Source of the DNA: Escherichia phage phiWec181
Reading direction: 5' to 3' (one strand)
Sequence record: LC739534.1
DNA: 64,000 nucleotides
The notes under the pieces are model-generated. The model made no database searches. It was given only the letters and a program-made list of their open reading frames with translations, and was not told the DNA's origin. The position numbers were made by a program, and so were the translations under genes. Positions within the stretch are counted from its first letter, which is position 1. Each line of letters opens with the position of its first letter. This document shows positions 8,741 through 62,703 of the stretch, in pieces.

Positions 8741-9027
8741 TGTTGGCGGTTTACATAAGCTTTACCGTTTACGGTCATCGGTATGGCCTCAAGGTCTGGA
8801 TCTTCCTTAAGGTCGCGTGCAAGCTCACCGCACCGGACACCCTCGAATCCGTGGTATTCTGTTTCCCCGTTCTTAAAAGTTTTAGCGGCAAGGCATAGGC
8901 GATAATTAACACCGATCCGGTTTACTGCGTTGATATCGGTTAACGTGATCGATTCCGGCAAATCGTTAGCCATTACAGGCGCGTTAATACCAACAACCAG
9001 GGCAACTACTGCGATCATCTTTTTCAT
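8737..9027 (-). CDS. secreted/periplasmic protein (96 aa, N-terminal signal peptide)
   Basis: N-terminus MKKMIAVVALVVGINAPVMA is a typical Sec signal peptide. Confidence 0.6.
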   Translation of the reverse strand: MKKMIAVVALVVGINAPVMANDLPESITLTDINAVNRIGVNYRLCLAAKTFKNGETEYHGFEGVRCGELARDLKEDPDLEAIPMTVNGKAYVNRQQ

Positions 9028-9062
9028 GTGTCTATCCTCTTCCTATTGCGTTTAATGGGGCG

Positions 9063-42157: not shown

Positions 42158-42379
42158 ATGGGTGTTGTTGCAGGTGTTCTGGCAGTAGTTATCGTGTTTG
42201 TTCTGGCTTTCCTGATTAGTATGATTCCAGCATGGCTTCTGCTGCTGGCTTATAACTACGTTGTTGAAATGATGGGTCACACAGATATCACTGTTCCTAT
42301 CACCTTCTGGACTGTGGTGTGTGTGGCATTTATCATGGCTGTACTACGTGGGATCTTTTCCTCAAGTTCTTCAAAATAA
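42158..42379 (+). CDS. small membrane protein (73 aa)
   Basis: Two hydrophobic helices; RBS AAGAGGAG. Confidence 0.6.
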   Translation: MGVVAGVLAVVIVFVLAFLISMIPAWLLLLAYNYVVEMMGHTDITVPITFWTVVCVAFIMAVLRGIFSSSSSK

Positions 42380-42460
42380 GTGTTGACAAGGTTTTAGAAT
42401 AGAGTAAGATGTATCACATGAGGCGGGGAGTGGTTCCCCGCAAAGAGAAAGGAGAAAATA

Positions 42461-43435
42461 ATGCAACTTGGTTTTCCAATCATTGATGTAGTGGTGTTGG
42501 TAGGTATTCTTGTTCTGTCGATCTGTGTTGACTTTTTTGGTCATCGTGAAAACAAGGAGATCTCTTTCAAATCCGCTGTGGCTTGGTCAGTATTCTGGAT
42601 TGGTGTGTCTTTAGCCTACTACGGTTTTGTATACTTCCAGCACGGCGCAGCTTTTGCAAACTTATTCTTGAGTGGATATGTGTTAGAGAAGTCGCTCTCG
42701 GTAGATAACTTGGTAGTGTTTGTAGCAGTGTTCTCCAGTTTCGGGATTAAGAGCACACACTTACAACACAAAATTCTACTCTGGGGTATTGCAGGTGCGA
42801 TTGTCTTCCGAGGTGTGTTTGTAGCAGCAGGGACTTATCTGCTAAGTTTGGGTTGGTTTGTTAATATCATCTTCGGTGCTGTTATCCTGTTCTGTGCTTT
42901 TAAAATGGTAATGGCTGGCGGTGATGATGAAGAAGTGGATTACTCTAAACATTGGGCGACACGCTTTGTACGTAAACTATTCCCAGTATCGGATCAGATG
43001 GATGGCGAGAAGTTCTTCACAATTAAGAATGGTGTTCGTGTAGCAACTCCGGCTCTGGTTTGTGTGTTCGTGATGGAAATGGTGGATGTGATCTTTGCAG
43101 TAGACTCGGTTCCGGCTGTAATTGCAGTGACACAAGAACCACTGCTTGTATTCTCTTCGATGCTCTGTGCAATCTTAGGCTTACGTGCTCTGTTCTTTGT
43201 TCTTAGTGTGGCCCTGAAGTATCTGGTTCACCTGGAAAAAGCAGTTATCGCAGTCCTGGTGTTTGTTGGTGTGAAACTGATGTATCACCCGTTTGCAGAA
43301 ACGCTGCACGCAAAAGTGAGCTTCCTGCCAGCGCATATTGACCCGACGATCAGCATGTATATCGTGCTTGGTACTCTGACCCTGGGCGTGATTGCAAGTT
43401 TCATCTTCCCTGAAAAAGAAGAAGCTACCGCTTAA
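42461..43435 (+). CDS. TerC-family integral membrane protein (324 aa)
   Basis: Multi-pass hydrophobic translation with YVLEKSLSVDNLVVF, which I recognise as the TerC signature. Confidence 0.7.
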   Translation: MQLGFPIIDVVVLVGILVLSICVDFFGHRENKEISFKSAVAWSVFWIGVSLAYYGFVYFQHGAAFANLFLSGYVLEKSLSVDNLVVFVAVFSSFGIKSTHLQHKILLWGIAGAIVFRGVFVAAGTYLLSLGWFVNIIFGAVILFCAFKMVMAGGDDEEVDYSKHWATRFVRKLFPVSDQMDGEKFFTIKNGVRVATPALVCVFVMEMVDVIFAVDSVPAVIAVTQEPLLVFSSMLCAILGLRALFFVLSVALKYLVHLEKAVIAVLVFVGVKLMYHPFAETLHAKVSFLPAHIDPTISMYIVLGTLTLGVIASFIFPEKEEATA

Positions 43436-43443
43436 TACCAATG

Positions 43444-43468
43444 AACCTCCTTCGGGAGGTTTCTTACT
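43444..43468 (+). terminator. candidate intrinsic terminator
   Basis: AACCTCC-TTCG-GGAGGTT hairpin followed by TCTT. Confidence 0.5.
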
Positions 43469-43483
43469 AACATAGGAGGAATT

Positions 43484-43834
43484 ATGTCTGTATATTTTGA
43501 CGATGTTCAGGAATATGTTTGGTGTCTTTCTGGCACAATCTCGGAAGTAGAAGCTGCGATTCAAGAGGTTTTTCCTTACGCTTATGTAGAAGTTAAACAG
43601 GCACCTCCTATGGATCTTCCCCCTAATGTGGAAGCTTGTTGTGGTTCCGGCGAGGGTACAGTCATCCCAGTTCTGCGTTACGAACTACAAGCAGCAAGTG
43701 CAAATGTCGATGATATTATTACAGAAATTAAGGCGTATGGTTTCTGGACCTCTCCTTACGCTAAATGGGATAACTCTGACACTTGGGATTTATTCTTCTG
43801 GGATAATGAGACAGATGACGAGGTATTTCTGTAA
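43484..43834 (+). CDS. hypothetical acidic protein (116 aa)
   Basis: RBS AGGAGG. Confidence 0.6.
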   Translation: MSVYFDDVQEYVWCLSGTISEVEAAIQEVFPYAYVEVKQAPPMDLPPNVEACCGSGEGTVIPVLRYELQAASANVDDIITEIKAYGFWTSPYAKWDNSDTWDLFFWDNETDDEVFL

Positions 43835-44076
43835 TGAAAGTTGTTTGGGTTGTGTTTGAAAATATTTGTTTTGCAATAGGTTTGTTCGTCATACTTTTTG
43901 TGTTGACAAACGTGATCAATGGTAGTAAAGTATCCCTATACAAAGACGGGGAGCAGATTTACTGCTTCTCTGGAGATTTCAAACACACCTGTGTTAATAT
44001 GCAGAAAGAAGAAACTCCACACCAGAAGTCAAGAGAAGATTTTGATTGGTGGTCACTACTTAATAACTTAAGATGA
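43834..44076 (+). CDS. membrane-anchored small protein (80 aa)
   Basis: N-terminal hydrophobic helix. Confidence 0.5.
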   Translation: MKVVWVVFENICFAIGLFVILFVLTNVINGSKVSLYKDGEQIYCFSGDFKHTCVNMQKEETPHQKSREDFDWWSLLNNLR

Positions 44077-44085
44077 GGAGAAAAT

Positions 44086-44955
44086 ATGAAAAATATTCAG
44101 CCATTACCTGTAGTTGGGGATTTGTATTTCTTATCTGGTACGGGTTATTCCCCAGAAGCATTAGAAGTTAACAAGAACGTCTTCCGAGTGAAAGAAATAA
44201 GAGAAGAATGTAATGAAATTGTTTTCGAAGGTATTACTAATGGAGTTCTTCAGTATGCAGAGATGCGTAGCTGCTTCCAGCAACCTTTCCGCCCGTTGGC
44301 AGACGAGTATAAGATTGCGGTAAATATTGATGATCTTAAAAAAGAACCAGGGTTCGAAGCGTTCTCTACTTTTATGGAAGATACGTATGTGGATGTAAAG
44401 AGATCTAACCTTTTCGCGGGGGATAATTTCCCTCACTTTGTGTCAGAGAAAAGTGATGGTTTTTCCGACTACGTGGATGCTGTAAACTATGATGTTTCTG
44501 AATTGACAGGAGAGCAGGATTATCTTCTGCTGTCTCCTAAAGATTTCATGCGCGTAATGTATGCCGTAGCCGAACAGAAAAAGAAGAAAGAAAAGCTTGT
44601 AGCCAAAAAAGTTAAAAAGGTTAAAGGTAAACGTGCCAAAGGTGTTCCAGAACGTAAGCGCACCGTAAATAAGGCGACAGTCTTCTTTACCAGCGGTGAG
44701 CAATATACGATCAAAGGTTTTAAAGAAGTGGGTTACACTGCTGGCGGAAACCTTCTGTTCTTCACAGTTGCAGAAGAAGGAGAAACTTTTATCCGTTTTT
44801 CCAATATGTGGGAAATGTCTGTAGAAGATATTAAAAGTGTTGTTGTTTTAGGTGTACATAAGAGTTTCATTATTAATCAAATCTCTGATTTCAGTGCACA
44901 CTTGACAGCACCAGATTTCGAAACTACCACAACAAGCTTTAACTTCAAGGTGTAA
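44086..44955 (+). CDS. hypothetical protein (289 aa) with Lys-rich segment
   Basis: RBS GAGGAG; internal KKKKEKLVAKKVKKVKGKRAK. Confidence 0.65.
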   Translation: MKNIQPLPVVGDLYFLSGTGYSPEALEVNKNVFRVKEIREECNEIVFEGITNGVLQYAEMRSCFQQPFRPLADEYKIAVNIDDLKKEPGFEAFSTFMEDTYVDVKRSNLFAGDNFPHFVSEKSDGFSDYVDAVNYDVSELTGEQDYLLLSPKDFMRVMYAVAEQKKKKEKLVAKKVKKVKGKRAKGVPERKRTVNKATVFFTSGEQYTIKGFKEVGYTAGGNLLFFTVAEEGETFIRFSNMWEMSVEDIKSVVVLGVHKSFIINQISDFSAHLTAPDFETTTTSFNFKV

Positions 44956-44958
44956 TGC

Positions 44959-45549
44959 ATGAATACCGAGAGAGATTTAAAACTCTTGTGGTGGGAAGTG
45001 ATGCAGGAGATCAAGGAGGATTTCCCTGTTTACTACAACATGCTACGTGAAGCTGGATATACGGCTTGCGTTAGGAACAAAGTGAATAACTCTTTCGGTT
45101 GGTGCAACTACCGAGAAAAGATTGTTGTTGTGAATTGGCACTTGCATAAAAACTCCACAAGGGATATGATAGTGGACACAATGAAGCATGAGATTGCTCA
45201 TGCGATCGACGGTTGTATGGGTAAGTTCAGTCGTCATGGACCACACTGGCAAAAGCTGGCAGCAGAGTTGGGAGCCAATCCTAAAGCTACTTCCAAAGAA
45301 CCGTTAAACCATGAGTACAAATATGTTCTTGTTTTGGTGGACAGATTTGCCACAAGATGTGTTAGAGGGTATAATCGTAAACCTAACCGTATGACTCCAG
45401 GGAAACAACCACATATTTGGTTGAAGAGTGATAAAGAGGGGACAGAAGGAAAAATATGGTTGTATAAATGGGAAGATTGGGTTAAAGTAGCTAAAGAATA
45501 TGGTGTTTCACCTTACACAAGAGAAATAGAAGAGGAGAATGAAGAATGA
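44959..45549 (+). CDS. SprT-like zinc metalloprotease-motif protein (196 aa)
   Basis: HEIAHAI (HExxH) preceded by conserved Cys/Trp region. Confidence 0.5.
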   Translation: MNTERDLKLLWWEVMQEIKEDFPVYYNMLREAGYTACVRNKVNNSFGWCNYREKIVVVNWHLHKNSTRDMIVDTMKHEIAHAIDGCMGKFSRHGPHWQKLAAELGANPKATSKEPLNHEYKYVLVLVDRFATRCVRGYNRKPNRMTPGKQPHIWLKSDKEGTEGKIWLYKWEDWVKVAKEYGVSPYTREIEEENEE

Positions 45550-46658
45550 CAAGTCCATTTTTGAAAGCGGCAACTGGTGGTCAAAAGAAATCTGAAACGA
45601 GTGTACTGACTGCTACTACAGATGCAAGCAAGTCCGTGTTCGCTCCGAGTGTCCTGGATGCAAGTCCAGTGTATGCTCCAGCAGCGCCAAAAGCTGTGCC
45701 TACCTTGCCAACAATGTCTCGTAAAGAGATTGAAGAAGTGGGTGCAGAAGCAGGTTTAACTCTCCGCACGCTGAATGCCGAAGTGTTAAAGCACCAACGT
45801 AGCAATCAAGGCGATGAAATGAGCCAACGCCTTACCGCGCTGATTAAACAAGCCAAACAGCTTGATCCTGCTTCTATCAAGCAGAGCAAAGGTGTAGGCA
45901 AACTTATCAAGAAACTGATGGGTATGAAGGAAGATCTGTTCGGGGAATTCGATAATGTGAACAACCGTATCGAAGAACTCGTTAAGAATCTTCAGATGGA
46001 TATTCGTAAAGAAGAAGATTCTCTGGTGTACCTGGAGAAGCTGCACCAGGCGATCGGACAGTACGCCGCAAGCCTGAATCGTGATATGGAATTACTCACA
46101 GCAGCTTATGAGCAAGAACTGGCTAACTTTGAAGCTACGCCAGAAGATGACGTAGAAGCCCGTCAACGCGTCCGTGACACGCTTGATCTTCTGGAGATAC
46201 GTATTGCTGACTTGAAGGCATTACGCTTGCTGTGCGTGCAAATGGGGCCGCGTGTATTGGGTATGCAGAAAGTATCTGCCAGCCTCATGCGTTCTGCTCG
46301 TAATATTGTGAACAATGTGATTCCTGCTTACTCGGCAAACTTCTCGATGTATATTGAAAGTCTGCGCCAGAAGAAAGCAGCAGAAACACAGAACAACGTT
46401 CTGGACGAGTTCAACCTGGCAATCAAACTGGGTAGCGATCTTGCCACACAGAACCAGATCGAAGCAGCAGCACTGGCTAACCGCCAAGTGTTGGATATCG
46501 AAACTCTGCGTCACGATCAGGAGAACTTGGTTAAGATGTTGGAAGAAACTAACCGCATCAATACGGAAGCCCGTGCTGCCCGTGTTGATTACATCAATGA
46601 AGTTCAATCTCTCGAAGATGGGATGGTTGACGCTGTTAAGAAGGGGTTGGGTAAATGA
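45546..46658 (+). CDS. coiled-coil protein (370 aa), possibly TelA-like
   Basis: Long helical, heptad-rich translation; TelA guess rests on size and Ter neighbourhood only. Confidence 0.6.
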   Translation: MTSPFLKAATGGQKKSETSVLTATTDASKSVFAPSVLDASPVYAPAAPKAVPTLPTMSRKEIEEVGAEAGLTLRTLNAEVLKHQRSNQGDEMSQRLTALIKQAKQLDPASIKQSKGVGKLIKKLMGMKEDLFGEFDNVNNRIEELVKNLQMDIRKEEDSLVYLEKLHQAIGQYAASLNRDMELLTAAYEQELANFEATPEDDVEARQRVRDTLDLLEIRIADLKALRLLCVQMGPRVLGMQKVSASLMRSARNIVNNVIPAYSANFSMYIESLRQKKAAETQNNVLDEFNLAIKLGSDLATQNQIEAAALANRQVLDIETLRHDQENLVKMLEETNRINTEARAARVDYINEVQSLEDGMVDAVKKGLGK

Positions 46659-54426: not shown

Positions 54427-55071
54427 ATGACCATGAGGTTAGTACAAGGTTGGGGGATTAATGATATAGGTAGTATCCCTAAAACAGGTTTTATCCGAGT
54501 AGCTTACAGGTGTTGGTCAAGAGTTTTAGAAAGATCTCACAGTAAAGCTTGGAAGAATAAGTATCCTACATACAAGGATGTAACATGTTGCGAAGACTGG
54601 AAATATTTTTCAGTATTCATGGACTGGATGGAGACACAACCTTGGGAAGGAAACGATTTGGATAAGGATTTGTTAGGAGATGGTAGCTTATACTCCCCTC
54701 AAACTTGTGTTTTTATACCTCCTGAAATAAATAAAGCTTTAGCTGCAAATAAAAAACAAGGAGAATTCTTATCTGGAGTCTGGTTTCAAACAAAGTCTAA
54801 AACTATGGTTAATAGTTTAAAACGTCCTTGGGCTGTTAAAGCCCATAGACAGGGTAGTAAAAAACCTGTATATTTAGGAAACTATTATTCAGAACAAGAA
54901 GCCCATAATGTGTGGTTGACTACACGCGCAGAGGATATGTTATGGTGGTGCGACCAATGGGAAAACAACGAGAAGTATAATAAATCTTGGAAACCTGTGT
55001 TTAAAGAAGCTTTTAATAAGAAAGCTGAAGCTTATAGAGGGAGGATAAAAAATGTCATACATTGTCACTAA
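54427..55071 (+). CDS. HNH/AP2-type homing endonuclease-like protein (214 aa)
   Basis: W..RC...Y..V..CEDWKxFSxFxxW...YSPxTC then AP2-like Y.SEQEAH..W; paralog of 59542-60138. Confidence 0.6.
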   Translation: MTMRLVQGWGINDIGSIPKTGFIRVAYRCWSRVLERSHSKAWKNKYPTYKDVTCCEDWKYFSVFMDWMETQPWEGNDLDKDLLGDGSLYSPQTCVFIPPEINKALAANKKQGEFLSGVWFQTKSKTMVNSLKRPWAVKAHRQGSKKPVYLGNYYSEQEAHNVWLTTRAEDMLWWCDQWENNEKYNKSWKPVFKEAFNKKAEAYRGRIKNVIHCH

Positions 55072-56833
55072 GTATGGTTTTGATGTAGATTTAAGCAAAG
55101 AGGGGCACACAGGGTGTCCCCGTTGTATGAAGAACGGAAAAGATAGATCGAAGAATAACTTGATGTGTTATGGGTTGGATTCTAACGATGAGCATAAAGG
55201 AGCAAAATGCTTCGCGTGTGAGTACACAATCCCCAGCGTTGAATGGTTACGAGAGAATGGTGAAGTTTTAGAAGAAGAGGAGGATATTGTGGGTTCGGAA
55301 TTTAATAAAGAGATTCATCGTAAGATTGTAGAAGAAACAGGCACTAACCCACGAGGCTACCGTGGGATCAAGGAAGAATATTCTAAATTCTACGGTGTAC
55401 GTTACCAGTACAAACAAGAAGAATCTGGTGTTGTTGTGGAACATACTTTGTATCCAACAACTATCGGTAAAGAACTGGTAGGTTTTAAGCGTCGTATCCA
55501 CCCTAAAGACTTCTCCAAGCCCATTGGTCAAGTAGGTAAAGATGTAGATTTGTTTGGACAAGTTCGTTTCCTTGAGCGTTCCCACACCGTAATCATTACT
55601 GGTGGTGAACATGATGCCTTGGCAGCATATCAAATGTTGGCAGAAGGTCTTGACAGGAAATATGAATTACCAGCAGTAGTTAGTGGCACAACTGGTGAAA
55701 CCAGTATGTACAAACAGGTACAGGCACAGTACCCTTTCTTTGAGAAGTTCAAGAAGATCATCGTCTGCATGGATAATGATAAGGCAGGTAAAGAAGCTTT
55801 TGAGAACATTGTGAAGGTGTTGCCTCGTAATAAAGTTTACCTGATGAAGATGGAACTGAAAGATGCTAATGAATACCTGGTGCAAGATAAAGCAAAAGAT
55901 TTTGTGAAAGCTTATTGGGGTGCAAAACTTTATACCCCAGCGGGTGTTTATGCTTCGAACGAACTTTATGAAGCTGCAATGGACTGTCTGGATGCACAAG
56001 TGATCACCCTCCCTCCGTTCATGCGTACTGCTGCGAACATGTTGGGTGGTGGTCTGGTAGAAGAAGAGATCACAGTTATTCTGGCTAAAACGAGTATCGG
56101 TAAGACGTTGATGGTCAATGAGATCACCAAACACATTATCGTGGCTCATCCAGAACATGTGCTGGGTATTCTGTCTCTGGAGGCAACGTATAAGAAATAC
56201 TCCCGTAACCTTCTTTCTTCGTTCCTGCATATTCCTTTGCATCGTAAGACTAAGGAAGAAAAGGCTGCGATCCTGGAAGAGAACAAGGAAGCTATCAATA
56301 ACTTCTACGTTCGTGAAGATGGTTCTCCTCGCTTCTTTGTTTGTGATGATCGTGGTGCAGACATTGATTCAATCAAGGAGAAAGTGCTGGAGATGATCAT
56401 CTACTTCGGCATTACCATCCTGGTAATTGACCCATACTCGGATCTGTTGTCGGGGATGAGTGTTCAGGAACAAGAAGAGTTGGCAACGTGGTTGAAGCGC
56501 ATCATGAAAGAATACGGCATCACGATCATTGTAATCTCGCACGTTAAGAAAGCTGCCAACAATGGTAACGAACACTTAACAGAAGATGATGCAATGGGTA
56601 GTAGCTTCTTGGCTAAAGGCGCAGGTATTACACTGGCACTGGAACGAGATAAGGCTAACGATGACCCCGTACTTAGAAACACAACTTTTTGTTATATTCT
56701 CAAAAACCGAGAGTTTTCAGAAACTGGTCCGGCTGGGGAGTTTTATTACGATATTAAAACTGCCACGCTACACGACAAAGCACAGTATTTTGCTAACCCT
56801 GATAATGCAGGTGGTGCAGAAGGCGCGTATTGA
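55052..56833 (+). CDS. DNA primase/helicase (593 aa)
   Basis: N-terminal zinc ribbon CPRC...CFAC; TOPRIM (GGEHD, DNDKAG); DnaB-like Walker A AKTSIGKT and Walker B LVIDPYSD. Confidence 0.85.
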   Translation: MSYIVTKYGFDVDLSKEGHTGCPRCMKNGKDRSKNNLMCYGLDSNDEHKGAKCFACEYTIPSVEWLRENGEVLEEEEDIVGSEFNKEIHRKIVEETGTNPRGYRGIKEEYSKFYGVRYQYKQEESGVVVEHTLYPTTIGKELVGFKRRIHPKDFSKPIGQVGKDVDLFGQVRFLERSHTVIITGGEHDALAAYQMLAEGLDRKYELPAVVSGTTGETSMYKQVQAQYPFFEKFKKIIVCMDNDKAGKEAFENIVKVLPRNKVYLMKMELKDANEYLVQDKAKDFVKAYWGAKLYTPAGVYASNELYEAAMDCLDAQVITLPPFMRTAANMLGGGLVEEEITVILAKTSIGKTLMVNEITKHIIVAHPEHVLGILSLEATYKKYSRNLLSSFLHIPLHRKTKEEKAAILEENKEAINNFYVREDGSPRFFVCDDRGADIDSIKEKVLEMIIYFGITILVIDPYSDLLSGMSVQEQEELATWLKRIMKEYGITIIVISHVKKAANNGNEHLTEDDAMGSSFLAKGAGITLALERDKANDDPVLRNTTFCYILKNREFSETGPAGEFYYDIKTATLHDKAQYFANPDNAGGAEGAY

Positions 56834-56916: not shown

Positions 56917-59514
56917 ATGAGTAAGTTTACATGGGATATTGAAGCAACCGCATTACTGAACAATGACACAATTGATTACCTGGCAAGCCCTTATCGATTG
57001 AAAGACACTTTTGGTATGCATTGTATTTGTCTGGAAAACCACGAAACAGGAGAGATCATTGCTTTTCACGATGGTCCTAAGTACATTTTCGATGGTCGTC
57101 CTTATGAAGAGTCTGACGGTAAGTACACTTATGTACTGAAGGAGTATGTGGCACAAGAATACACACACTTTCCTCTGTCAGATTTTCCAGATTTTGTCAA
57201 CCATACAGGCAAGTTCGCAGATAAGCCTGAATACCTCGTAGAAATGGCTGTAGCCCACAACGGCATCAACTATGACCACTTGGCAGTTAAGCTTTACTAC
57301 GGGCTGAATTACAGCGTTAAATACAATACTTGGGGTGATTCGAAAGTTAAGATTATTGATACCCTGATCCTTAGTAAAGTATTGAACCCTGATCGCAAGG
57401 TTGATGGTAAACCTGGGCACAACTTGAATGCTCTTTCTAAAAAAGCTGGCGGTGATGTTAAGATTGATTTCCGTAAAGAGCTTCCAGAAGGAGAACGATT
57501 CAAGACTTTCGCAGCAGATATGTTGTACTACTGTATCTACGACAACAAGGCAACTACAGCAGTATATTATTACCTCATGGAAGAATGGGGCGATTATAAG
57601 AAGTGGCAAGAGCCGTTCGACTTGGAGCAACGTATTGCGGATATCATCACCCGTCAAGAACACCGTGGCTTTAAGTTCAACATGCAACAAGCTGAACAGA
57701 ACCTGGAATTCTTGGACAAAGAAATGGAACGTCTACGTTTGTTGGTAGAGCCTATTCTTCCACCTAAGCCAGCGACTAAAGGTTATCTGAAAGATTTTAT
57801 TCCGCCGAAACTTCAAATCAAGAAGAACGGTGAGCCAACAAACCATATCATCAGGTTTGCGGAGAAACATGGCGGTAGCCTTGAAGAACGTGAAGGTGAT
57901 TGGTGGCTGCTTGTTTTAGATAAAGAGTTTAAGTTACCGATCTCAAGTGAAGAACCTATTTGTGAACCTACCATTCCGTCTACGCTGAATGATACGACAC
58001 ACATTAAAAACTGGCTTGTAGGTTTAGGTTGGGTTCCGTCTGAATATAAAGACAAGGATTTGACGCTTAAATCTGGTTCGAAGATCAAGAAAGATCCTGA
58101 CGACTTAGAGAAAGGTATTCTGTCTTATGTCAAACAGACCTTGGAAAGCAATTTCTGTAATGACCGTTGCGAACACTTACAAGCCGATGCTGAAACACTG
58201 GAGCTTAGAATCCGTGAACGTCTGGCTAAAGGGAAAGGTCGTGGTCTTAAAGTGCTGACCAACCCATGCTTCACGAAGGGGCAGGAGAAAGAGATTTGTC
58301 CTAATCTTGAAGCACTGGGCGAGAAGTTCCCGTATGCCACACAGATTGTGCAGTACCTGACGTACAAACATCGTCGAAACTCTATTTTGGGCGGTGGTGC
58401 AGATTGGGAAGACGATGAGGAAGATCAAGAATACGACAAAGGTTTCTTGGCAGCAGTTCGTGCCGATGGTCGTATAGCGACTCCAGCGGCTACATGTGAC
58501 GCTGCAACATCTCGTATGAAGCATCGCTCTGTTGCTAACGTTCCTCGCGTTACATCGTTGTTTGGGTACGAAATGCGTAACTTGTTTGGGGTAGAAACAC
58601 CGCGTTACTTCCAGATCGGTTATGACTTTGACTCCTTGGAAGCAAAGATTGAGTCGCATTATTGTTGGCGCTACGAACCGGAGCCTCATGAATACTGTAA
58701 CGCTCTCTTGTTGGAGAAGCCTAACGATGTTCATACCATGATGGCAAGACGTATCACAGAAACTATTGGACGTAAGTTTGAACGTAGTCCAGCTAAATCT
58801 GTTAAATACGGGATTACATATGGAGCACAGGCAGACAAAGTTGCTAAGACAATTGGTAGTGATAAGTACACAGGACAACTGGTATTTGATGCGTTCTGGG
58901 AAGCAGCTTTCCCGTTAGCACAACTGAAAGAGAAGTTGAATGCTTTCTGGGTTAACACTGGCAAGCAGTATGTTCTCGGTATTGATGGACGTAAAGTTCC
59001 AACACGATCTGCACATGCAATCTTAAACTCCTTGTTCCAAAGTGGCGGGGTTATCTGTGCCAAGCGTGCAATGGTAATCTATGACGATATGATTGAAGAG
59101 GAAGGTTTAGCTGTTGACTTCTTCGTAGATGACTGGAAGAATAAAGAGTTCGTTCAGCAAATGATTGCTTACCACGATGAAGCGCAGCTTGAAGTATCTC
59201 GTAACTTGGTGGAATTTAAATGGTTCTCCAAAGAGTCTTTAGGTTGGGTTAAAGTGGATGACGAGAAAGAGCAGAAGAAAATAGATGCGGAATGTCTTGC
59301 AAAAGCTAATGAATGGAAGCATAATAAAGAGAAAGAGACAGGGCAGATTTGGGCTAACGTTCACGAATCACCTAAAGGTGGTTGGTTTACCGCTTATAGT
59401 CGTGCCGGAGAACTTGCTTCTCTTGCTGTTATCAAAGCTGGGGAATATTACAAACTAAACGTTCAGCTTACCGCTGGATACGATGTTGGTAGTTCCTGGG
59501 CCAGTTGTCATTGA
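56917..59514 (+). CDS. family A DNA polymerase with 3'-5' exonuclease domain (865 aa)
   Basis: Exo motifs DIEATAL, NGINYDH, YYCIYD; polymerase motif A GYDFDSLE, motif B KSVKYGITYG, motif C YHDE. Confidence 0.9.
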   Translation: MSKFTWDIEATALLNNDTIDYLASPYRLKDTFGMHCICLENHETGEIIAFHDGPKYIFDGRPYEESDGKYTYVLKEYVAQEYTHFPLSDFPDFVNHTGKFADKPEYLVEMAVAHNGINYDHLAVKLYYGLNYSVKYNTWGDSKVKIIDTLILSKVLNPDRKVDGKPGHNLNALSKKAGGDVKIDFRKELPEGERFKTFAADMLYYCIYDNKATTAVYYYLMEEWGDYKKWQEPFDLEQRIADIITRQEHRGFKFNMQQAEQNLEFLDKEMERLRLLVEPILPPKPATKGYLKDFIPPKLQIKKNGEPTNHIIRFAEKHGGSLEEREGDWWLLVLDKEFKLPISSEEPICEPTIPSTLNDTTHIKNWLVGLGWVPSEYKDKDLTLKSGSKIKKDPDDLEKGILSYVKQTLESNFCNDRCEHLQADAETLELRIRERLAKGKGRGLKVLTNPCFTKGQEKEICPNLEALGEKFPYATQIVQYLTYKHRRNSILGGGADWEDDEEDQEYDKGFLAAVRADGRIATPAATCDAATSRMKHRSVANVPRVTSLFGYEMRNLFGVETPRYFQIGYDFDSLEAKIESHYCWRYEPEPHEYCNALLLEKPNDVHTMMARRITETIGRKFERSPAKSVKYGITYGAQADKVAKTIGSDKYTGQLVFDAFWEAAFPLAQLKEKLNAFWVNTGKQYVLGIDGRKVPTRSAHAILNSLFQSGGVICAKRAMVIYDDMIEEEGLAVDFFVDDWKNKEFVQQMIAYHDEAQLEVSRNLVEFKWFSKESLGWVKVDDEKEQKKIDAECLAKANEWKHNKEKETGQIWANVHESPKGGWFTAYSRAGELASLAVIKAGEYYKLNVQLTAGYDVGSSWASCH

Positions 59515-59541: not shown

Positions 59542-60138
59542 ATGCTTACTGTATATGGTGAAGGTATTAATGATCTGGAGGGTGAGAGCACTCTACCTGG
59601 TAGTAAGAAACTGACTCCTCATTATATGAAATGGATGGCTATGTTGGGGAGGTGTTACTCCCCTTGCCAACAAGAACGTGATCCTTGTTATCATGGGGTG
59701 CTGGTCTGTGAAGAATGGAAGCTGTTTTCCAACTTCTATGCTTGGTTAAAAACTTGGGAAGAGTGGGAGAAATTAGAATTAGACAAGGATATTATTGGAG
59801 GGGGAGTTTACTCCCCTAACACCTGCCTTTTAGTAACAGGAGATCTTAACAAGTTCTTAGCTTATAGAGTGAGTAAAAGATCTCATGGAACTATGGTAGG
59901 TTTACATTACGAAAAAGATCGTAAGAAGTATAAAGCCAATATTAAAACAGGCTCACGCATGGTAACACTTGGACGTTTTGATACTGAACTTGAGGCGCAT
60001 CTTTGTTGGTTGAAAGCTAAAGCAGAACAACTTACAAAGTTTTTTGAAACAGAAGACAAAAGAGTTGTTCCACATCTTAAAGCATTGTATAATGATATGC
60101 TTGAACATATTGAACAACGTAAGGAGTGGACACGATAG
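59542..60138 (+). CDS. HNH/AP2-type homing endonuclease-like protein (198 aa)
   Basis: Paralog of 54427-55071; AP2-like GRFDTELEAHLCW. Confidence 0.6.
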   Translation: MLTVYGEGINDLEGESTLPGSKKLTPHYMKWMAMLGRCYSPCQQERDPCYHGVLVCEEWKLFSNFYAWLKTWEEWEKLELDKDIIGGGVYSPNTCLLVTGDLNKFLAYRVSKRSHGTMVGLHYEKDRKKYKANIKTGSRMVTLGRFDTELEAHLCWLKAKAEQLTKFFETEDKRVVPHLKALYNDMLEHIEQRKEWTR

Positions 60139-60343: not shown

Positions 60344-60511
60344 ATGACTTCCGGTATTATGATCTGTTATAAGATCGTTCGTATTGTTGGGGATGAAGTT
60401 ACTACTCGCCACTTTATGATTGAAAATCATGCTGATGAGGTGTATAATGATTGGCTGGAACAAGGCGGATACGACTTCGTATCTAAAGAAACTTTCCACT
60501 TAGAAGTATAA
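60344..60511 (+). CDS. hypothetical protein (55 aa)
   Basis: Below ORF-track cutoff; RBS GAGGAGGA. Confidence 0.4.
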   Translation: MTSGIMICYKIVRIVGDEVTTRHFMIENHADEVYNDWLEQGGYDFVSKETFHLEV

Positions 60512-60520
60512 GGAGAAGAA

Positions 60521-60739
60521 ATGCGTAAATTAGTGAGTTTTAATGTTTCAATTCTGATTGATGAACAAAATGAAGATGTTATTAAAGGTCTTGCAAATAA
60601 GATTGAAGGTGGAATGACGGAAGCAGAAGTATGGGAAGAATGTGCTCGACTTTATGAAGCAGGTGTTCTTGAAGTCTTGGAAGATGAGATTAATATGGAT
60701 GATGTTGTTAAAGTAACTGTGGAGCGTATCAATGACTAA
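60521..60739 (+). CDS. hypothetical acidic protein (72 aa)
   Basis: RBS AAGGAGAAG. Confidence 0.5.
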   Translation: MRKLVSFNVSILIDEQNEDVIKGLANKIEGGMTEAEVWEECARLYEAGVLEVLEDEINMDDVVKVTVERIND

Positions 60740-61337
60740 ATCAAGCCAGATTACCCTTGCCCGTGAGATCCTTACTGTTCTTAAGATTGCTGATCCTCGT
60801 TCAATCCTGGCAGGTGGCGCGGTCCGTGATTGGTACATGCTGGACATTGCAGGGCGAGATCTGGACTTCTATACATCATTCCAGCCACACCGAAACATAG
60901 ATCAGGTGATTACGTTTATCAAAGAGAATCTTAAAGGCACCAATGTAACCGTGTTAGGTCAGGAGGAAATGGGTGACAACTATGAGTCTATGATCGGACT
61001 GAAACATGTGTTTGAGTTTATCCGTGATGATCAGGTTTGCAATCTCATGATCATGGAACCATGCTACATGAGCAACATCCTGAAAAACTTTGATCTTTCT
61101 GTTTGCAAAGCTTCGTTTGATGGTGTAGAATATTACTTCGATCCTGACTTCCTGGTAACAGATGCAACAAATATTTGCTTCGTGCATAAGGATGTTAAAG
61201 TGGATGCGAAACACGTCCGTAAGATCGCGGATCGCTTCCCGCACATGCGTTTTGTACGTGACTTGGATGTGCAGCGTCGCACGCAAGATAAGGCTCTACC
61301 AAAGTTCGAAGATACTGATGAAGATATTCCTTGGTAA
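60732..61337 (+). CDS. Pol-beta-type nucleotidyltransferase, CCA-adding-enzyme head-like (201 aa)
   Basis: ILAGGAVRDWYMLDIAGRDLDF matches GGxVRD...DxD signature. Confidence 0.55.
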   Translation: MTKSSQITLAREILTVLKIADPRSILAGGAVRDWYMLDIAGRDLDFYTSFQPHRNIDQVITFIKENLKGTNVTVLGQEEMGDNYESMIGLKHVFEFIRDDQVCNLMIMEPCYMSNILKNFDLSVCKASFDGVEYYFDPDFLVTDATNICFVHKDVKVDAKHVRKIADRFPHMRFVRDLDVQRRTQDKALPKFEDTDEDIPW

Positions 61338-61381
61338 TAAAGCTTGACTTTCACTAATCTTTTATGATAGGATGACAATCA

Positions 61382-61777
61382 ATGACTGAACGTTCAAAAG
61401 TAAGTGTTGAAACTGAATACAGCGAATACCTGAACAGTTTGATACTTGTTGAAAAAGATGTAATAGGTCTGGATAACTCGTTCTTCTTTCAAATCCTGAT
61501 AGGTAAGGGTGGACACCGAAAGTTATTCTCTCGCGTGGAAGACTCTGACCTATCCGAAACTGAAATAACGGTTAAAGAACTTATTAGCCTACAGGATAAC
61601 ATCCGAAAAGTTATTGACACAGCCGGGAACGCTGTTACAATAAAACTCGACATGCATTCTGTGCAATTTGTTCATTTTCCGAATGGAGAAATTGGAGTTG
61701 GAATAGGTAAAGGTAAGTACCTTTTAGAAAAAGAAAACGCAGAGCTTCTTCGTGAGTTCTGTGCAAAAACAATGTGA
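61382..61777 (+). CDS. hypothetical protein (131 aa)
   Basis: ORF. Confidence 0.55.
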   Translation: MTERSKVSVETEYSEYLNSLILVEKDVIGLDNSFFFQILIGKGGHRKLFSRVEDSDLSETEITVKELISLQDNIRKVIDTAGNAVTIKLDMHSVQFVHFPNGEIGVGIGKGKYLLEKENAELLREFCAKTM

Positions 61778-61794
61778 ATATAGAGGAGATAATA

Positions 61795-62703
61795 ATGTCC
61801 GTAATTAATACTGAAACTGATCGTAAAGGCAAAACTGTAACTTATGCAACTGGTGTTGTAGACTACGTTAAACTGGATAAATTCGCAGAGCCTAAAACCT
61901 TCCAATGGGATGGTAAGTCGATTGTTTCTACTCACCGTGCTTCACTCGTTCTGAAAGAAAAGGGTGCCAAGCAGGATGCAAAAGGGACGTGGATTAGCCT
62001 GGGTGATATTGAACTGAAAGAAGGTTACGAAAATCTTCAGGTTAAAGATGGTGATACTTGGATCACTATCGAAAAAGGTGTTGAAGTTAGTATTGATATC
62101 GACAAAGTTGATACCAAAGGCGACAAAACTTACTACAATACCAAGAAATCTCGTATCACTGTTCTTTCTACTGAAGGTGTTCAGAAGAAAGAAAATAAAT
62201 CTGGTGGGACTGGCGTTTCAGGTAATACTGGAAACAAACAATCCTTCAAAAAACGTGATACCGTAGGTCTTGAGACTGGTCATGCAGTTAACGGAGCTTT
62301 GGAACTGATTCGTAATGGTGTGAAAGGTGAAGCGTTTGATATTGCAGGTGTGGTTCAGTCTGCTACTGTGACTCTGAAAGCTGAAGTGGCTAAAGAGCGT
62401 GGCGTAGATATCAGTGATTATGATCTGGGGGCTTCTGTTGGTCACGCTGTTCTGAATGCCTGTAAAGATCATTCCGGTAAGACTGTTTCGGTAGAAGATT
62501 TGATTGAAACTGCTCGTGAAGTTCTGGCACTTTCTGACAAGGTAGCTAATGCCATTCGTGGCGCAGCAGAACAACCTAAGAAAGAAGAAGCCAAGAAAGA
62601 GCCTAAGAAGGAAGAACCGAAGCAGGAGCCTAAACAAGAACCTGCTCCTCAACAAAATCCAGAAGAACCTCCAATGGACTTCGATGATGATATTCCATTC
62701 TGA
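61795..62703 (+). CDS. ssb: single-stranded DNA-binding protein (302 aa)
   Basis: ATG 61795 with AGAGGAG RBS; Lys/Glu/Pro-rich linker and acidic tail ending DFDDDIPF. Confidence 0.75.
   Translation: MSVINTETDRKGKTVTYATGVVDYVKLDKFAEPKTFQWDGKSIVSTHRASLVLKEKGAKQDAKGTWISLGDIELKEGYENLQVKDGDTWITIEKGVEVSIDIDKVDTKGDKTYYNTKKSRITVLSTEGVQKKENKSGGTGVSGNTGNKQSFKKRDTVGLETGHAVNGALELIRNGVKGEAFDIAGVVQSATVTLKAEVAKERGVDISDYDLGASVGHAVLNACKDHSGKTVSVEDLIETAREVLALSDKVANAIRGAAEQPKKEEAKKEPKKEEPKQEPKQEPAPQQNPEEPPMDFDDDIPF

Follow-up and report, generated by a model that had tools for sequence, protein, structure and literature searches.

A predicted Gad2-family nucleotidyltransferase with an SSB-like C-terminal tip in the replication module of Escherichia phage phiWec181

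The 64,000-nucleotide stretch of Escherichia phage phiWec181 analyzed in this study (LC739534.1; hereafter, the window) contains a 201-codon gene whose product appears to be of a known kind, the phage "nucleotidyltransferases" (NTases) of the Gad2 family, with a function that is predicted only. The reading we favor, to which we assign a probability of roughly 0.4, is that the protein is a phage-specific NTase involved in replication-associated counter-defence: nucleotidyl transfer by an enzyme docked through its C-terminal tip would shield replicating DNA from Gabija-type nucleases. When the choice is between a counter-defence NTase associated with replication and a tRNA repair enzyme, the former is the most likely.

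The gene (60732..61337, + strand, stop codon counted) starts with ATG, ends with TAA and matches PHROG 10174 "nucleotidyltransferase" (2.7e-45) and phrog_1614 (1e-8). Its ATG overlaps the stop codon of an upstream 72-aa ORF (phrog_25475; 60521..60739, + strand) in the sequence ATGACTAA, and a GGAG motif lies about 9-12 nt 5' of the start. The opposite strand is interrupted by stop codons throughout. Copies in phiWec179 and phiWec186 are 100% identical to the query, and related phages keep the gene at 56-98% identity. The product is acidic, with a pI of 5.1 and a core charge of -5. A PADLOC scan gave no match. The ORF list, the translation and the conservation of the family agree with the initial annotation in that this is a real 201-aa ORF with GGAVRD and DLD motifs.

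The most conserved part of the protein is motif A (60813..60866, + strand), made of GGAVRDW (residues 28-34; GGAVRD, residues 28-33, nt 60813-60830) and DLD (residues 43-45, nt 60858-60866), which would provide the catalytic metal-binding carboxylates. In an alignment of 143 family sequences whose overall identity is merely 20-35%, G28, G29, D43 and D45 are invariant (143/143), and A27, A30, R32, D33 and W34 are conserved in at least 90%. Near-invariance among sequences so divergent indicates that motif A is not a chance match. The two halves of the motif are separated by nine residues (WYMLDIAGR) rather than by the 13 initially counted. One of the nine, D38, is an insertion specific to the clade, so the spacing in the wider family is 8 residues, as in E. 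coli Cca. The Pol-beta superfamily is recognized by an alpha-beta-alpha-beta-alpha-beta core in which an hG[GS] loop precedes a [DE]x[DE] motif located on the following strand, and this arrangement is found here, as initially proposed for the NTase head signature. Motif A can be aligned with its counterpart in CCA-adding enzymes and poly(A) polymerase (PAP), and also with the AGGxITS...DLDVYF segment of Gad2. From the invariant GG and DxD residues, the NTase is predicted to be catalytically competent, with a fold that corresponds to the head plus a neck stub of class II tRNA nucleotidyltransferases.

Three additional segments were examined using the alignment and an AlphaFold2 (AF2) model, which was built from the 143 sequences and replaced a poor model based on 11 close homologues (pLDDT 61). 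The first is E95 (61014..61016, + strand), located on strand beta4 (residues 90-98 in the model), which is a putative third catalytic carboxylate. This position is occupied by E in 84, by D in 16 and by N in 20 of the 143 sequences, and is therefore acidic in 100; among the 43 sequences (30%) that have no acid there, 24 carry D or E somewhere within residues 92-99. The second, F120-D-L-S-V-C-K-A-S-F-D130 (61089..61121, + strand), is equivalent to motif B and common to Gad2 (FDFTVCMGxFD), with F120, S123 and C125 strongly conserved in the family. It aligns opposite FDFTVCMG of Gad2 and opposite RRDLTINA of E. coli Cca, with N-F in place of RR. The third is a conserved basic, neck-like helix, H161-V-R-K164-I-A-D-R168-F169-P170 (61212..61241, + strand; residues 160-168 in the model), whose alignment to class II motif D is ambiguous. 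Of the 143 sequences, 132 have H or Y at position 161, and K164, F169 and P170 are present in 138, 122 and 109, respectively.

The closest characterized relative of the NTase is the N-terminal NTase domain of Gad2. Comparison of the family with a 10-sequence Gad2 profile using hhalign gave 97.4% probability and an E value of 1e-11 over 121 columns (query residues 12-153), and comparison with the verified Gad2 of B. laterosporus gave 91.9% and 6.8e-7. With the query alone, BLASTP against Gad2 yielded an E value of 0.004. Precomputed matches to PF26128 ("Gad2") are unmarked for core members P0290, P0284, P0314, P0315, P0310 and P0331. The match of P0298 is marked "weak", and that of P0001, a protein with 98% identity to the query, is marked "faint". 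The two groups share AGG, DxDxY[F], (V/I)QxI and FD(F/L)(T/S)VC...(H/D)(E/P)DFL, and both occur almost exclusively in phages.

The relationship has, however, clear boundaries. The alignment ends at Gad2 residue ~141-159, and beyond residue ~175 the query is a low-confidence tail. The verified Gad2 proteins (from Bacillus phage SPbetaL7 and a B. laterosporus prophage) have 394-400 aa, including a C-terminal region of ~250 aa that the NTase does not have, and carry GGxITS where the NTase family has GGA(P/V)RDW. Because of these two differences, anti-Gabija activity may require parts that the NTase lacks. The location differs too, as SPbeta-type Gad2 is found in a dedicated anti-defence locus and the NTase gene in a replication module. 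In the source paper, SPbetaL7 without Gad2 became Gabija-sensitive and regained resistance with a homologue; the Gad2 proteins assayed against Gabija there were those of 394-400 aa only, and the homologue list provided by the authors also includes short forms of 214-278 aa (e.g., 214 and 228 aa). A second, long-form Gad2 was not detected in the window by tblastn.

The NTase family comprises ~433 clusters (at 50% identity) of standalone proteins of ~190-220 aa. Every context sampled was phage-like, and the family is almost missing from 185,579 species-representative genomes, where 9 loci were found, all of them in MAGs. The annotations of the clusters are either generic or read "tRNA nucleotidyl transferase/poly(A) polymerase". 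Short phage proteins labeled "nucleotidyltransferase" or "PolyA_pol head domain" (PHROG 10174 and 1614) belong to the same family or are close structural neighbors; they are of equal size and often adjoin primase/helicase genes. Examples are found in phAPEC8, phi92 (gp158), ICP1 (ORF223), Pectobacterium PP2, phiNV3 and Emajogi (gp22). A literature search returned nothing on short phage head-domain NTases.

The NTase differs from most of these proteins in its C-terminus, which reads ...EDTDEDIPW and comprises a linker (residues 176-195) and an acidic/aromatic tip, D-E-D-I-P-W (residues 196-201, nt 61317-61334; the whole segment, 61257..61334, + strand). Across the NTase clade, the tip is strongly conserved (P200 and W201 without exception, D197, D198 and I199 in at least 90%), and the linker differs from member to member in both length and sequence; in the AF2 model, residues 181-201 have block-mean pLDDT values of 46-61. 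As judged from the alignment, the clade has a conserved C-terminus that resembles the tip of bacterial SSB (DDDIPF): both proteins terminate in I-P-aromatic preceded by a stretch of acidic residues, in the NTase after a variable linker modeled with low confidence. The differences are that the NTase tip ends in Trp and the SSB tip in Phe, and that the former is borne by an enzyme and the latter by an OB-fold SSB. Matches to [DE][DE]IP[FWY] in the six frames of the window are two, each at a protein C-terminus. Unlike in other short proteins of PHROG 10174/1614, the DDIPW tip is found in the phapecoctavirus clade and in a few scattered members. Its absence from phi92 gp158 and from most of the family indicates that it is not essential to the core function. 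Acidic/aromatic tips recur in at least seven separate NTase sub-clades, and two full-length Gad2 homologues terminate in ...PIF. The possibility that the tip is a clamp-binding motif was rejected by inspection, as it has no QLxLF-like pattern. A literature search found no report of phage proteins other than SSB that mimic the SSB tip.

A second protein with a tail of this type is encoded two genes downstream (61774..62703, + strand). This SSB-like protein of 309 aa matches PHROG 4477, is annotated as SSB in related phages and has a tail that is matched by SSB PHROGs. Its final 12 residues, EPPMDFDDDIPF (nt 62665-62700), are those of the E. coli SSB C-terminus according to a phmmer comparison with PDB 1eqq.

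The genes surrounding the NTase gene are those of a DNA replication module. Upstream lie a presumed primase-helicase of 593 aa (55052..56833, + strand), whose 593-aa equivalents in loci L010 (a contig near-identical to the window) and L012 were the copies scanned for domains and contain Toprim_2 and DnaB_C, and a family A DNA polymerase of 865 aa (56917..59514, + strand; PF00476 at 4.6e-14), which has the same position in phi92, L010 and L012. The order helicase-primase, Pol A, NTase, SSB-like is thus found in the window and in these three relatives. The ORF that separates the NTase gene from the SSB-like gene (131 aa, phrog_16560; 61382..61777, + strand) is 55% identical to phi92 gp157 and 35% identical to its counterpart in L012, and is not found beside distant NTase family members. 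A conserved two-gene module made of the NTase and this ~131-aa gene was considered and discarded, as the downstream gene is kept in the phi92/phAPEC8 lineage only. In more distant phages the arrangements are NTase, DnaB, Pol A (L013); NTase, Pol A (L026); 5'-3' exonuclease, NTase (L025); and NTase, HNH, primase/helicase, Pol B (a Curvibacter phage). A replication context is also found in L014 and for Emajogi gp22/gp23. Some other members have no replication genes in their vicinity and are found in the neighborhood of RtcB or Thg1, or amid small early ORFs. The NTase gene is recurrently placed in phage DNA-replication modules. Both this placement and the Gad2 relationship go beyond the initial annotation.

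The same context admits an explanation that does not involve defence. The NTase might be a replication accessory, either a terminal transferase or a primer-processing enzyme that extends the 3' ends of DNA or RNA primers with untemplated nucleotides, at genome termini or within the phage replisome. In unrelated phage lineages the gene is repeatedly found beside genes for helicase-primase, DNA polymerase or 5'-3' exonuclease, and its product has an acidic/aromatic, SSB-like tail similar to tails that serve for docking at the replisome. T7 gp2.5 and gp4 provide analogues of such tails. In addition, the ribose-discriminating RRD motif of class II enzymes has been lost, which, as deduced from the class II alignment, could allow the use of dNTPs. 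We regard this explanation as unlikely, and yet as the best placed of the alternatives.

A somewhat more doubtful alternative is tRNA 3'-end repair or CCA addition, whereby a minimal, head-only class II enzyme would mend ends trimmed by host defences or mature the phage tRNAs. CCA-adding enzymes encoded by phages are an accepted theme in RNA repair (PMC7824862), and the resemblance is genuine in some respects: among proteins of solved structure, those nearest in fold are the CCA-adding, A-adding and PAP enzymes, and motif A matches. Ten tRNAs are encoded by the phage, one of which (tRNA-Tyr) has a gene without CCA, and RNA repair genes lie within a few kb of two distant family members (RtcB in L007 and Thg1 in L011). 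At the sequence level, however, similarity to CCA-adding enzymes is limited to motif A. The match to PF01743 (PolyA_pol head) covers residues 26-58 only and scores 15 bits versus a gathering threshold of 23, and 23 of the 143 family members reach E<=0.01 with this model. The RNA-binding domain PF12627 was not found, and an NCBIfam search returned CCA models only, all of them below threshold (12-13 bits versus cut-offs of 290-439). In hhalign comparisons with single sequences of E. coli Cca and PcnB, motif A alone was aligned.

Comparison of the family with a class II profile gave 55% and E 1.2e-4, values that, compared with 97.4% and 1e-11, place the family nearer to Gad2 than to CCA enzymes. 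This profile was made of close Cca homologues and PcnB and has low diversity, so its mapping of motifs B and D is moderately reliable at best. On that mapping, the RRD of motif B lies opposite N119-F120-D121; across the family, these positions have the consensus x-F-x, and D is present in 45/143 sequences only. No conserved E-D pair corresponds to the EDxxR of motif D, as positions 157/158, in a low-confidence stretch of the alignment, are variable; the residues conserved nearby are instead H/Y161, K164 and R/K168. The templates for base and ribose selection are therefore not conserved. The protein is also half as long as class II tRNA nucleotidyltransferases and poly(A) polymerase I (3aql, 4wby, 1miv, 1ou5; ~370-470 aa), and lacks the body and tail with which those enzymes hold their tRNA or RNA primer. 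A standalone "CCA-adding enzyme head domain" of 191 aa does exist in S. pneumoniae (NP_344798.1, PDB 2la3), where it is encoded on the bacterial chromosome; no sequence similarity to the NTase was detectable at E<=10. PDB sequence searches with the single NTase protein and with a shallow profile produced noise only. Neither CD-NTase/cGAS-like signal synthases nor MenT/AbiEii-type (DUF1814) NTase toxins were found to share both fold and sequence similarity with the NTase.

The genomic data also speak against a role in tRNA maturation: CCA is encoded in nine of the ten phage tRNA genes, the host has Cca, and the tRNA cluster lies ~55 kb upstream of the window, in which no tRNA genes are found. 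Of the CCA-adding-enzyme-like identity initially proposed, the alignment of motif A is retained; the profile score, motifs B and D, the missing neck (stub aside), body and tail, and the CCA-encoding tRNA genes do not fit it. Judged from its sequence, the NTase does not qualify as a CCA-adding enzyme as that class is defined.

RNA tailing by a mini poly(A)/poly(N) polymerase, which would tag transcripts of the host or the phage so that they are degraded or stabilized, is also quite unlikely, less probable than tRNA repair. The protein has no RNA-binding C-terminal region and is acidic, and RNA degradation genes were not seen in its context. Lower still we place the synthesis of a small nucleotide product (e.g., a dinucleotide or a polyphosphate) acting as a signal or decoy that keeps a nucleotide-sensing nuclease such as GajA off. 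A small, acidic, standalone protein would suit an enzyme acting on small molecules, and no fold or sequence tie to nucleic-acid-binding elements was found. Cheng et al. (2021) are reported to have found that the Gabija nuclease is nucleotide-regulated. A 2026 review still counts the mechanism of Gad2 among the unknowns, which leaves room for a product of this kind. The least probable idea, and a very improbable one, is that catalysis is secondary and the tip does the main work by competing for SSB-tail pockets on host repair and restart proteins: a clade-conserved DDIPW beyond a variable linker, as in E. coli SSB, and a neighbor that copies the E. coli tip exactly are in its favor, but most family members have no tip, and the invariance of GG and DxD in tipless members as well indicates that catalysis is under selection.

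The reading that we prefer, replication-associated counter-defence by a Gad2-family NTase, would involve the following steps. The NTase would be expressed together with the replication genes, and its DDIPW tip would dock it on a protein that recognizes SSB tails; candidates are the polymerase and the helicase of the phage and the SSB partners of the host. Once docked, the enzyme would transfer a nucleotide, the acceptor being a 3'-OH (in DNA or RNA), a protein or a small molecule. Such transfer might guard replicating phage DNA against Gabija-type nuclease defences that sense replication or DNA ends. A bolder version, which we consider improbable, is that a built-in mimic of the SSB tip targets a short Gad2-family NTase to replisomes or DNA ends through the docking sites also used by the phage SSB-like protein, and that a nucleotidylated 3' end or bound protein then blocks defences that sense DNA ends or replication, Gabija and its relatives included.

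These observations connect the catalytic domain of Gad2, a validated anti-Gabija protein, with ~200-aa "nucleotidyltransferases" that form a large family restricted to phages. They indicate that members of this family are not CCA-adding enzymes, and that the label "tRNA nucleotidyl transferase" on such phage proteins should be treated as unreliable. Gabija is one of the commoner defences in bacteria. In the phAPEC8 group of therapy coliphages, the NTase gene may determine host range on Gabija-positive strains. Members of the family are short and easily purified, and may help to find what Gad2-type NTases transfer, and to what; the SSB-tip-like tail, in turn, suggests a concrete route of recruitment. 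If the bolder version given above is correct, it would provide a first mechanistic handle on Gad2-type enzymes and an example of an enzyme that hijacks the SSB interaction hub.

The gene at 60732..61337 (+ strand) encodes a 201-aa protein between an ATG start and a TAA stop, and the ORF is real; stop codons abound on the opposite strand. The ATG overlaps the stop of a 72-aa ORF located upstream, and GGAG precedes the start. When we examined the motifs reported in the initial annotation, GGAVRD and DLD were found at residues 28-33 and 43-45. The gap between them is, however, 9 residues and not 13, and the family alignment identifies D38 within it as a clade-specific insertion; hence, the family spacing is 8 residues, as in E. 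coli Cca. Escherichia phages phiWec179 and phiWec186 (Stephanstirmvirinae, Phapecoctavirus) match the window at 100% identity. The protein is assigned to phrog_10174 (2.7e-45), with a more distant match to phrog_1614, and relatives carry the labels 'nucleotidyltransferase' or 'putative tRNA nucleotidyl transferase / poly(A) polymerase'; it is a further member of an already known and annotated kind. Promoter-like sequences are found at 61344-61373 (TTGACT-18 nt-TAGGAT, extended -10 TG), inside the 44 nt that separate the stop of the nucleotidyltransferase (NTase) from the following gene (61382), and, with a better score (TTGAAA-17-TATAAT, 11/12), at 60420-60448, 5' of the 72-aa ORF whose translation is coupled to that of the NTase. 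Such sites are no more numerous than chance would give.

From 1.84 billion representative proteins, a close-homologue profile retrieved 433 clusters with E<=1e-3, of which 107 had E<=1e-10; nearly all consist of standalone proteins 170-240 aa long. In 185,579 species-representative genomes, a scan with one pattern hit only 9 loci, all in MAGs, and every long contig examined was phage-like in appearance. In an alignment of 143 sequences, mostly 20-35% identical to the query, G28, G29, D43 and D45 are invariant, A27, A30, R32, D33, W34, Y84 and K164 are at least 90% conserved, and conservation is strong at F120, S123, C125, F140, F169 and P170; an acid occupies the E95 position in 100 sequences. 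This pattern indicates an enzyme selected for catalysis.

AlphaFold2 with a deep alignment gave a model with pLDDT 89 and pTM 0.84 (block-mean pLDDT 46-61 over residues 181-201). Fold comparison placed class II enzymes (CCA-adding enzymes and bacterial poly(A) polymerase) on top: E. coli poly(A) polymerase 3aql (12.1), A-adding enzyme 4wby (11.7), CC-adding 3wfo (10.9), and T. maritima 3h37 and B. stearothermophilus CCA enzyme 1miv (10.8 each). The standalone 191-aa head-domain protein 2la3 (9.2) and human TRNT1 1ou5 (9.1) followed, and Pol X, TENT5, MenT, CD-NTases and aminoglycoside NTases reached 5-8. Foldseek against the PDB agrees, and the same fold is found in many 165-230-aa phage proteins of BFVD, including ICP1 ORF223. 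These matches uphold, for the predicted structure, the intuition that the protein is a tRNA-NTase-type head.

In sequence, only motif A resembles class II enzymes. Class II matches of the family profile in the PDB (E 2e-4 to 0.02) span ~40 residues, hhalign aligned 25 columns to Cca and 40 to PcnB, and a head-plus-neck profile-profile alignment gave E 1.2e-4. In this last alignment, opposite motif B of class II enzymes (R-R-D), the query has N-F-D and the family consensus x-F-x; motif D (E-D) faces variable positions, and the body and tail domains are absent. For the query, PF01743 stayed below threshold (15 bits vs 23), and NCBIfam CCA equivalogs scored 12-13 bits against cut-offs of 290-439. 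Altogether, these observations argue against a CCA-adding enzyme in the defined sense: of the likeness to such enzymes proposed initially, fold and motif A stand, while motifs B and D, body, tail and the PF01743 threshold speak against it.

A closer relationship is found elsewhere. Most core family members have a precomputed match to PF26128 'Gad2' in contig look-ups, although only a faint one was recorded for a 98%-identical twin of the query. Gad2, 400 aa long, counteracts Gabija in Bacillus phage SPbetaL7, which becomes Gabija-sensitive on its deletion, a B. laterosporus homologue gives resistance back to SPbeta, and AlphaFold predicts an NTase domain in it (10.1101/2023.05.01.538930); its mechanism was still listed as unknown in a February 2026 review (PMC12904381). 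Using sequences from Supplementary Table 10 of that preprint, hhalign matched the query family to the verified B. laterosporus Gad2 (91.9%, E 6.8e-7) and to a 10-sequence Gad2 profile (97.4%, E 1e-11, 121 columns; query 12-153, Gad2 17-141). Both share AGG...DxDxYF, (V/I)Q-x-I and FD(F/L)(T/S)VC...(D/E)DFL. At the sequence level, the match to Gad2 is much stronger than that to class II enzymes. Differences exist: verified Gad2 has ~250 extra residues that the query lacks, and GGxITS where the family has GGA(P/V)RDW. The Gad2 homologues listed range, however, from 214 to 485 aa and include proteins of 214, 228 and 278 aa (10.1101/2023.05.01.538930). Those of 474-485 aa (phages 4MG, KpS8) harbor a ~130-residue insertion within the NTase domain; two full-length Paenibacillus homologues end in ...PIF and a short Schlesneria form in ...PYPWF (Supplementary Table 10 sequences).

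Gene order was also compared. In the window, its near-identical relative L010, phi92 and contig L012, the order is helicase-primase, Pol A, (HNH or small ORFs), NTase, a 131-148-aa protein and an SSB-like protein. The NTase precedes a DnaB-like helicase and Pol A in L013, a helicase-like ATPase and Pol A in L014, HNH, primase/helicase, HNH and Pol B in a Curvibacter phage, and Pol A in L026; it follows a 5'-3' exonuclease, downstream of Pol A, in L025, and ThyX in L009 and L011. In L007, L008, Vibrio phage 1.101.O and ICP1 it lies amid small early ORFs. Association with replication or nucleotide-metabolism modules is therefore recurrent across polymerases and lineages, but not universal. A rival reading is that the protein is a pure replication accessory or a terminal transferase. 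The 131-aa downstream gene was rejected as a family-wide partner because its conservation is lineage-specific.

The HNH endonuclease gene of the window (59542-60138; phrog_953, 1.3e-69), between the DNA polymerase and the small ORFs downstream, is absent at this place in the closest relatives (PsgM04F, phiWec188, phiWec190 and many phAPEC8-like phages), which align only from query position 636, a pattern typical of mobile homing endonuclease insertion. 'Pseudomonas phage PsgM04F' (OR584014.1; host P. coronafaciens) shares 96% DNA identity with the present E. coli phage region, and a phi92-like copy occurs in 'Campylobacter phage C3'; both host labels look doubtful. In L026, a 61-aa protein of the Acb2/Tad1 hairpin family (anti-CBASS/anti-Thoris sponge) is encoded at 8852-9037, ~7 kb downstream of the tip-bearing family member P0337; known anti-defence genes can thus share the early/replication region.

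In the phapecoctavirus clade the NTase ends in ...D-(D/E)-D-I-P-W, with P200 and W201 invariant and D197, D198 and I199 nearly so; the 15-20 residues before it, modelled with low confidence, differ among members in both length and sequence. The 309-aa SSB-like protein encoded two genes downstream (61774-62703; phrog_4477, without a Pfam OB-fold match) ends in EPPMDFDDDIPF (62665-62700), the very 12 residues that close E. coli SSB, which suggests that the phage protein may plug into the host SSB interaction network. A search of the 64-kb window in six frames for [DE][DE]IP[FWY] gives two matches only, one at the extreme C-terminus of each of the two proteins. Among 222 family proteins, 42 have F or W as last residue and 23 have acidic/aromatic tips (PDDIPW, NDIPW, DDGIPF, KPIPF, SDDDF and DFDDLDEGLF, for instance). 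Clustering at 40% identity separates the tip-bearers of the 143-sequence alignment into at least 7 groups; the nearest relatives of tip-bearers are often tipless, and two independent tip-bearers again adjoin Pol A or exonuclease genes (L025, L026). The tip is absent from phi92 gp158. The SSB-like orthologue phi92 gp156 (L001 6053-7000) has DFDDDIPF internally, followed by 15 residues (APIGLQYGRNFLHCF), either a masked tip or a differing annotated stop. By analogy with SSB-Ct and the tails of T7 gp2.5 and gp4, the simplest reading of the NTase tip is a putative peptide for docking onto a protein of the replisome or a partner of SSB.

The reading that the evidence supports best is that of an active NTase of the Gad2 family, specific to phages and with a head of class II type. 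Its most likely role would be counter-defence: expressed together with replication genes and, in this clade, probably tethered through the SSB-like tip, it would transfer a nucleotide at replicating phage DNA. Rival readings make it an RNA tailing enzyme, a small-molecule or decoy synthase, or a competitor acting through the tip only.

Repair of tRNA CCA ends, a further rival reading, may still apply but has nothing specific in its support: the sole hints come from RtcB or Thg1 genes lying a few kb away from two distant family members, and CCA is already encoded in 9 of the 10 phage tRNA genes, which lie ~55 kb upstream of the window (LC739533.1 19056-21113). The tRNA-Tyr gene (LC739533.1 20339-20422) is the one without CCA, ending in ...CACATC followed by AAAT. 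In L007 (4906-5949, 9339-11209), an IS605 OrfB/TnpB-like gene lies directly 5' of the family member, and RtcB and GIY-YIG ~3 kb downstream; in L011 (569-1360), Thg1 lies ~5 kb upstream. Such RNA-repair genes are sporadic neighbours. On LC739533.1, also outside the window, a dTDP-rhamnose pathway (rffG, glucose-1-phosphate thymidylyltransferase, rfbC, rfbD-like) adjoins nrdAB (42284-45559).

For this family, the 'tRNA nucleotidyl transferase' label is thus corrected, a large group of short forms is tied to Gad2, and the SSB-like tip of the NTase is brought to notice.
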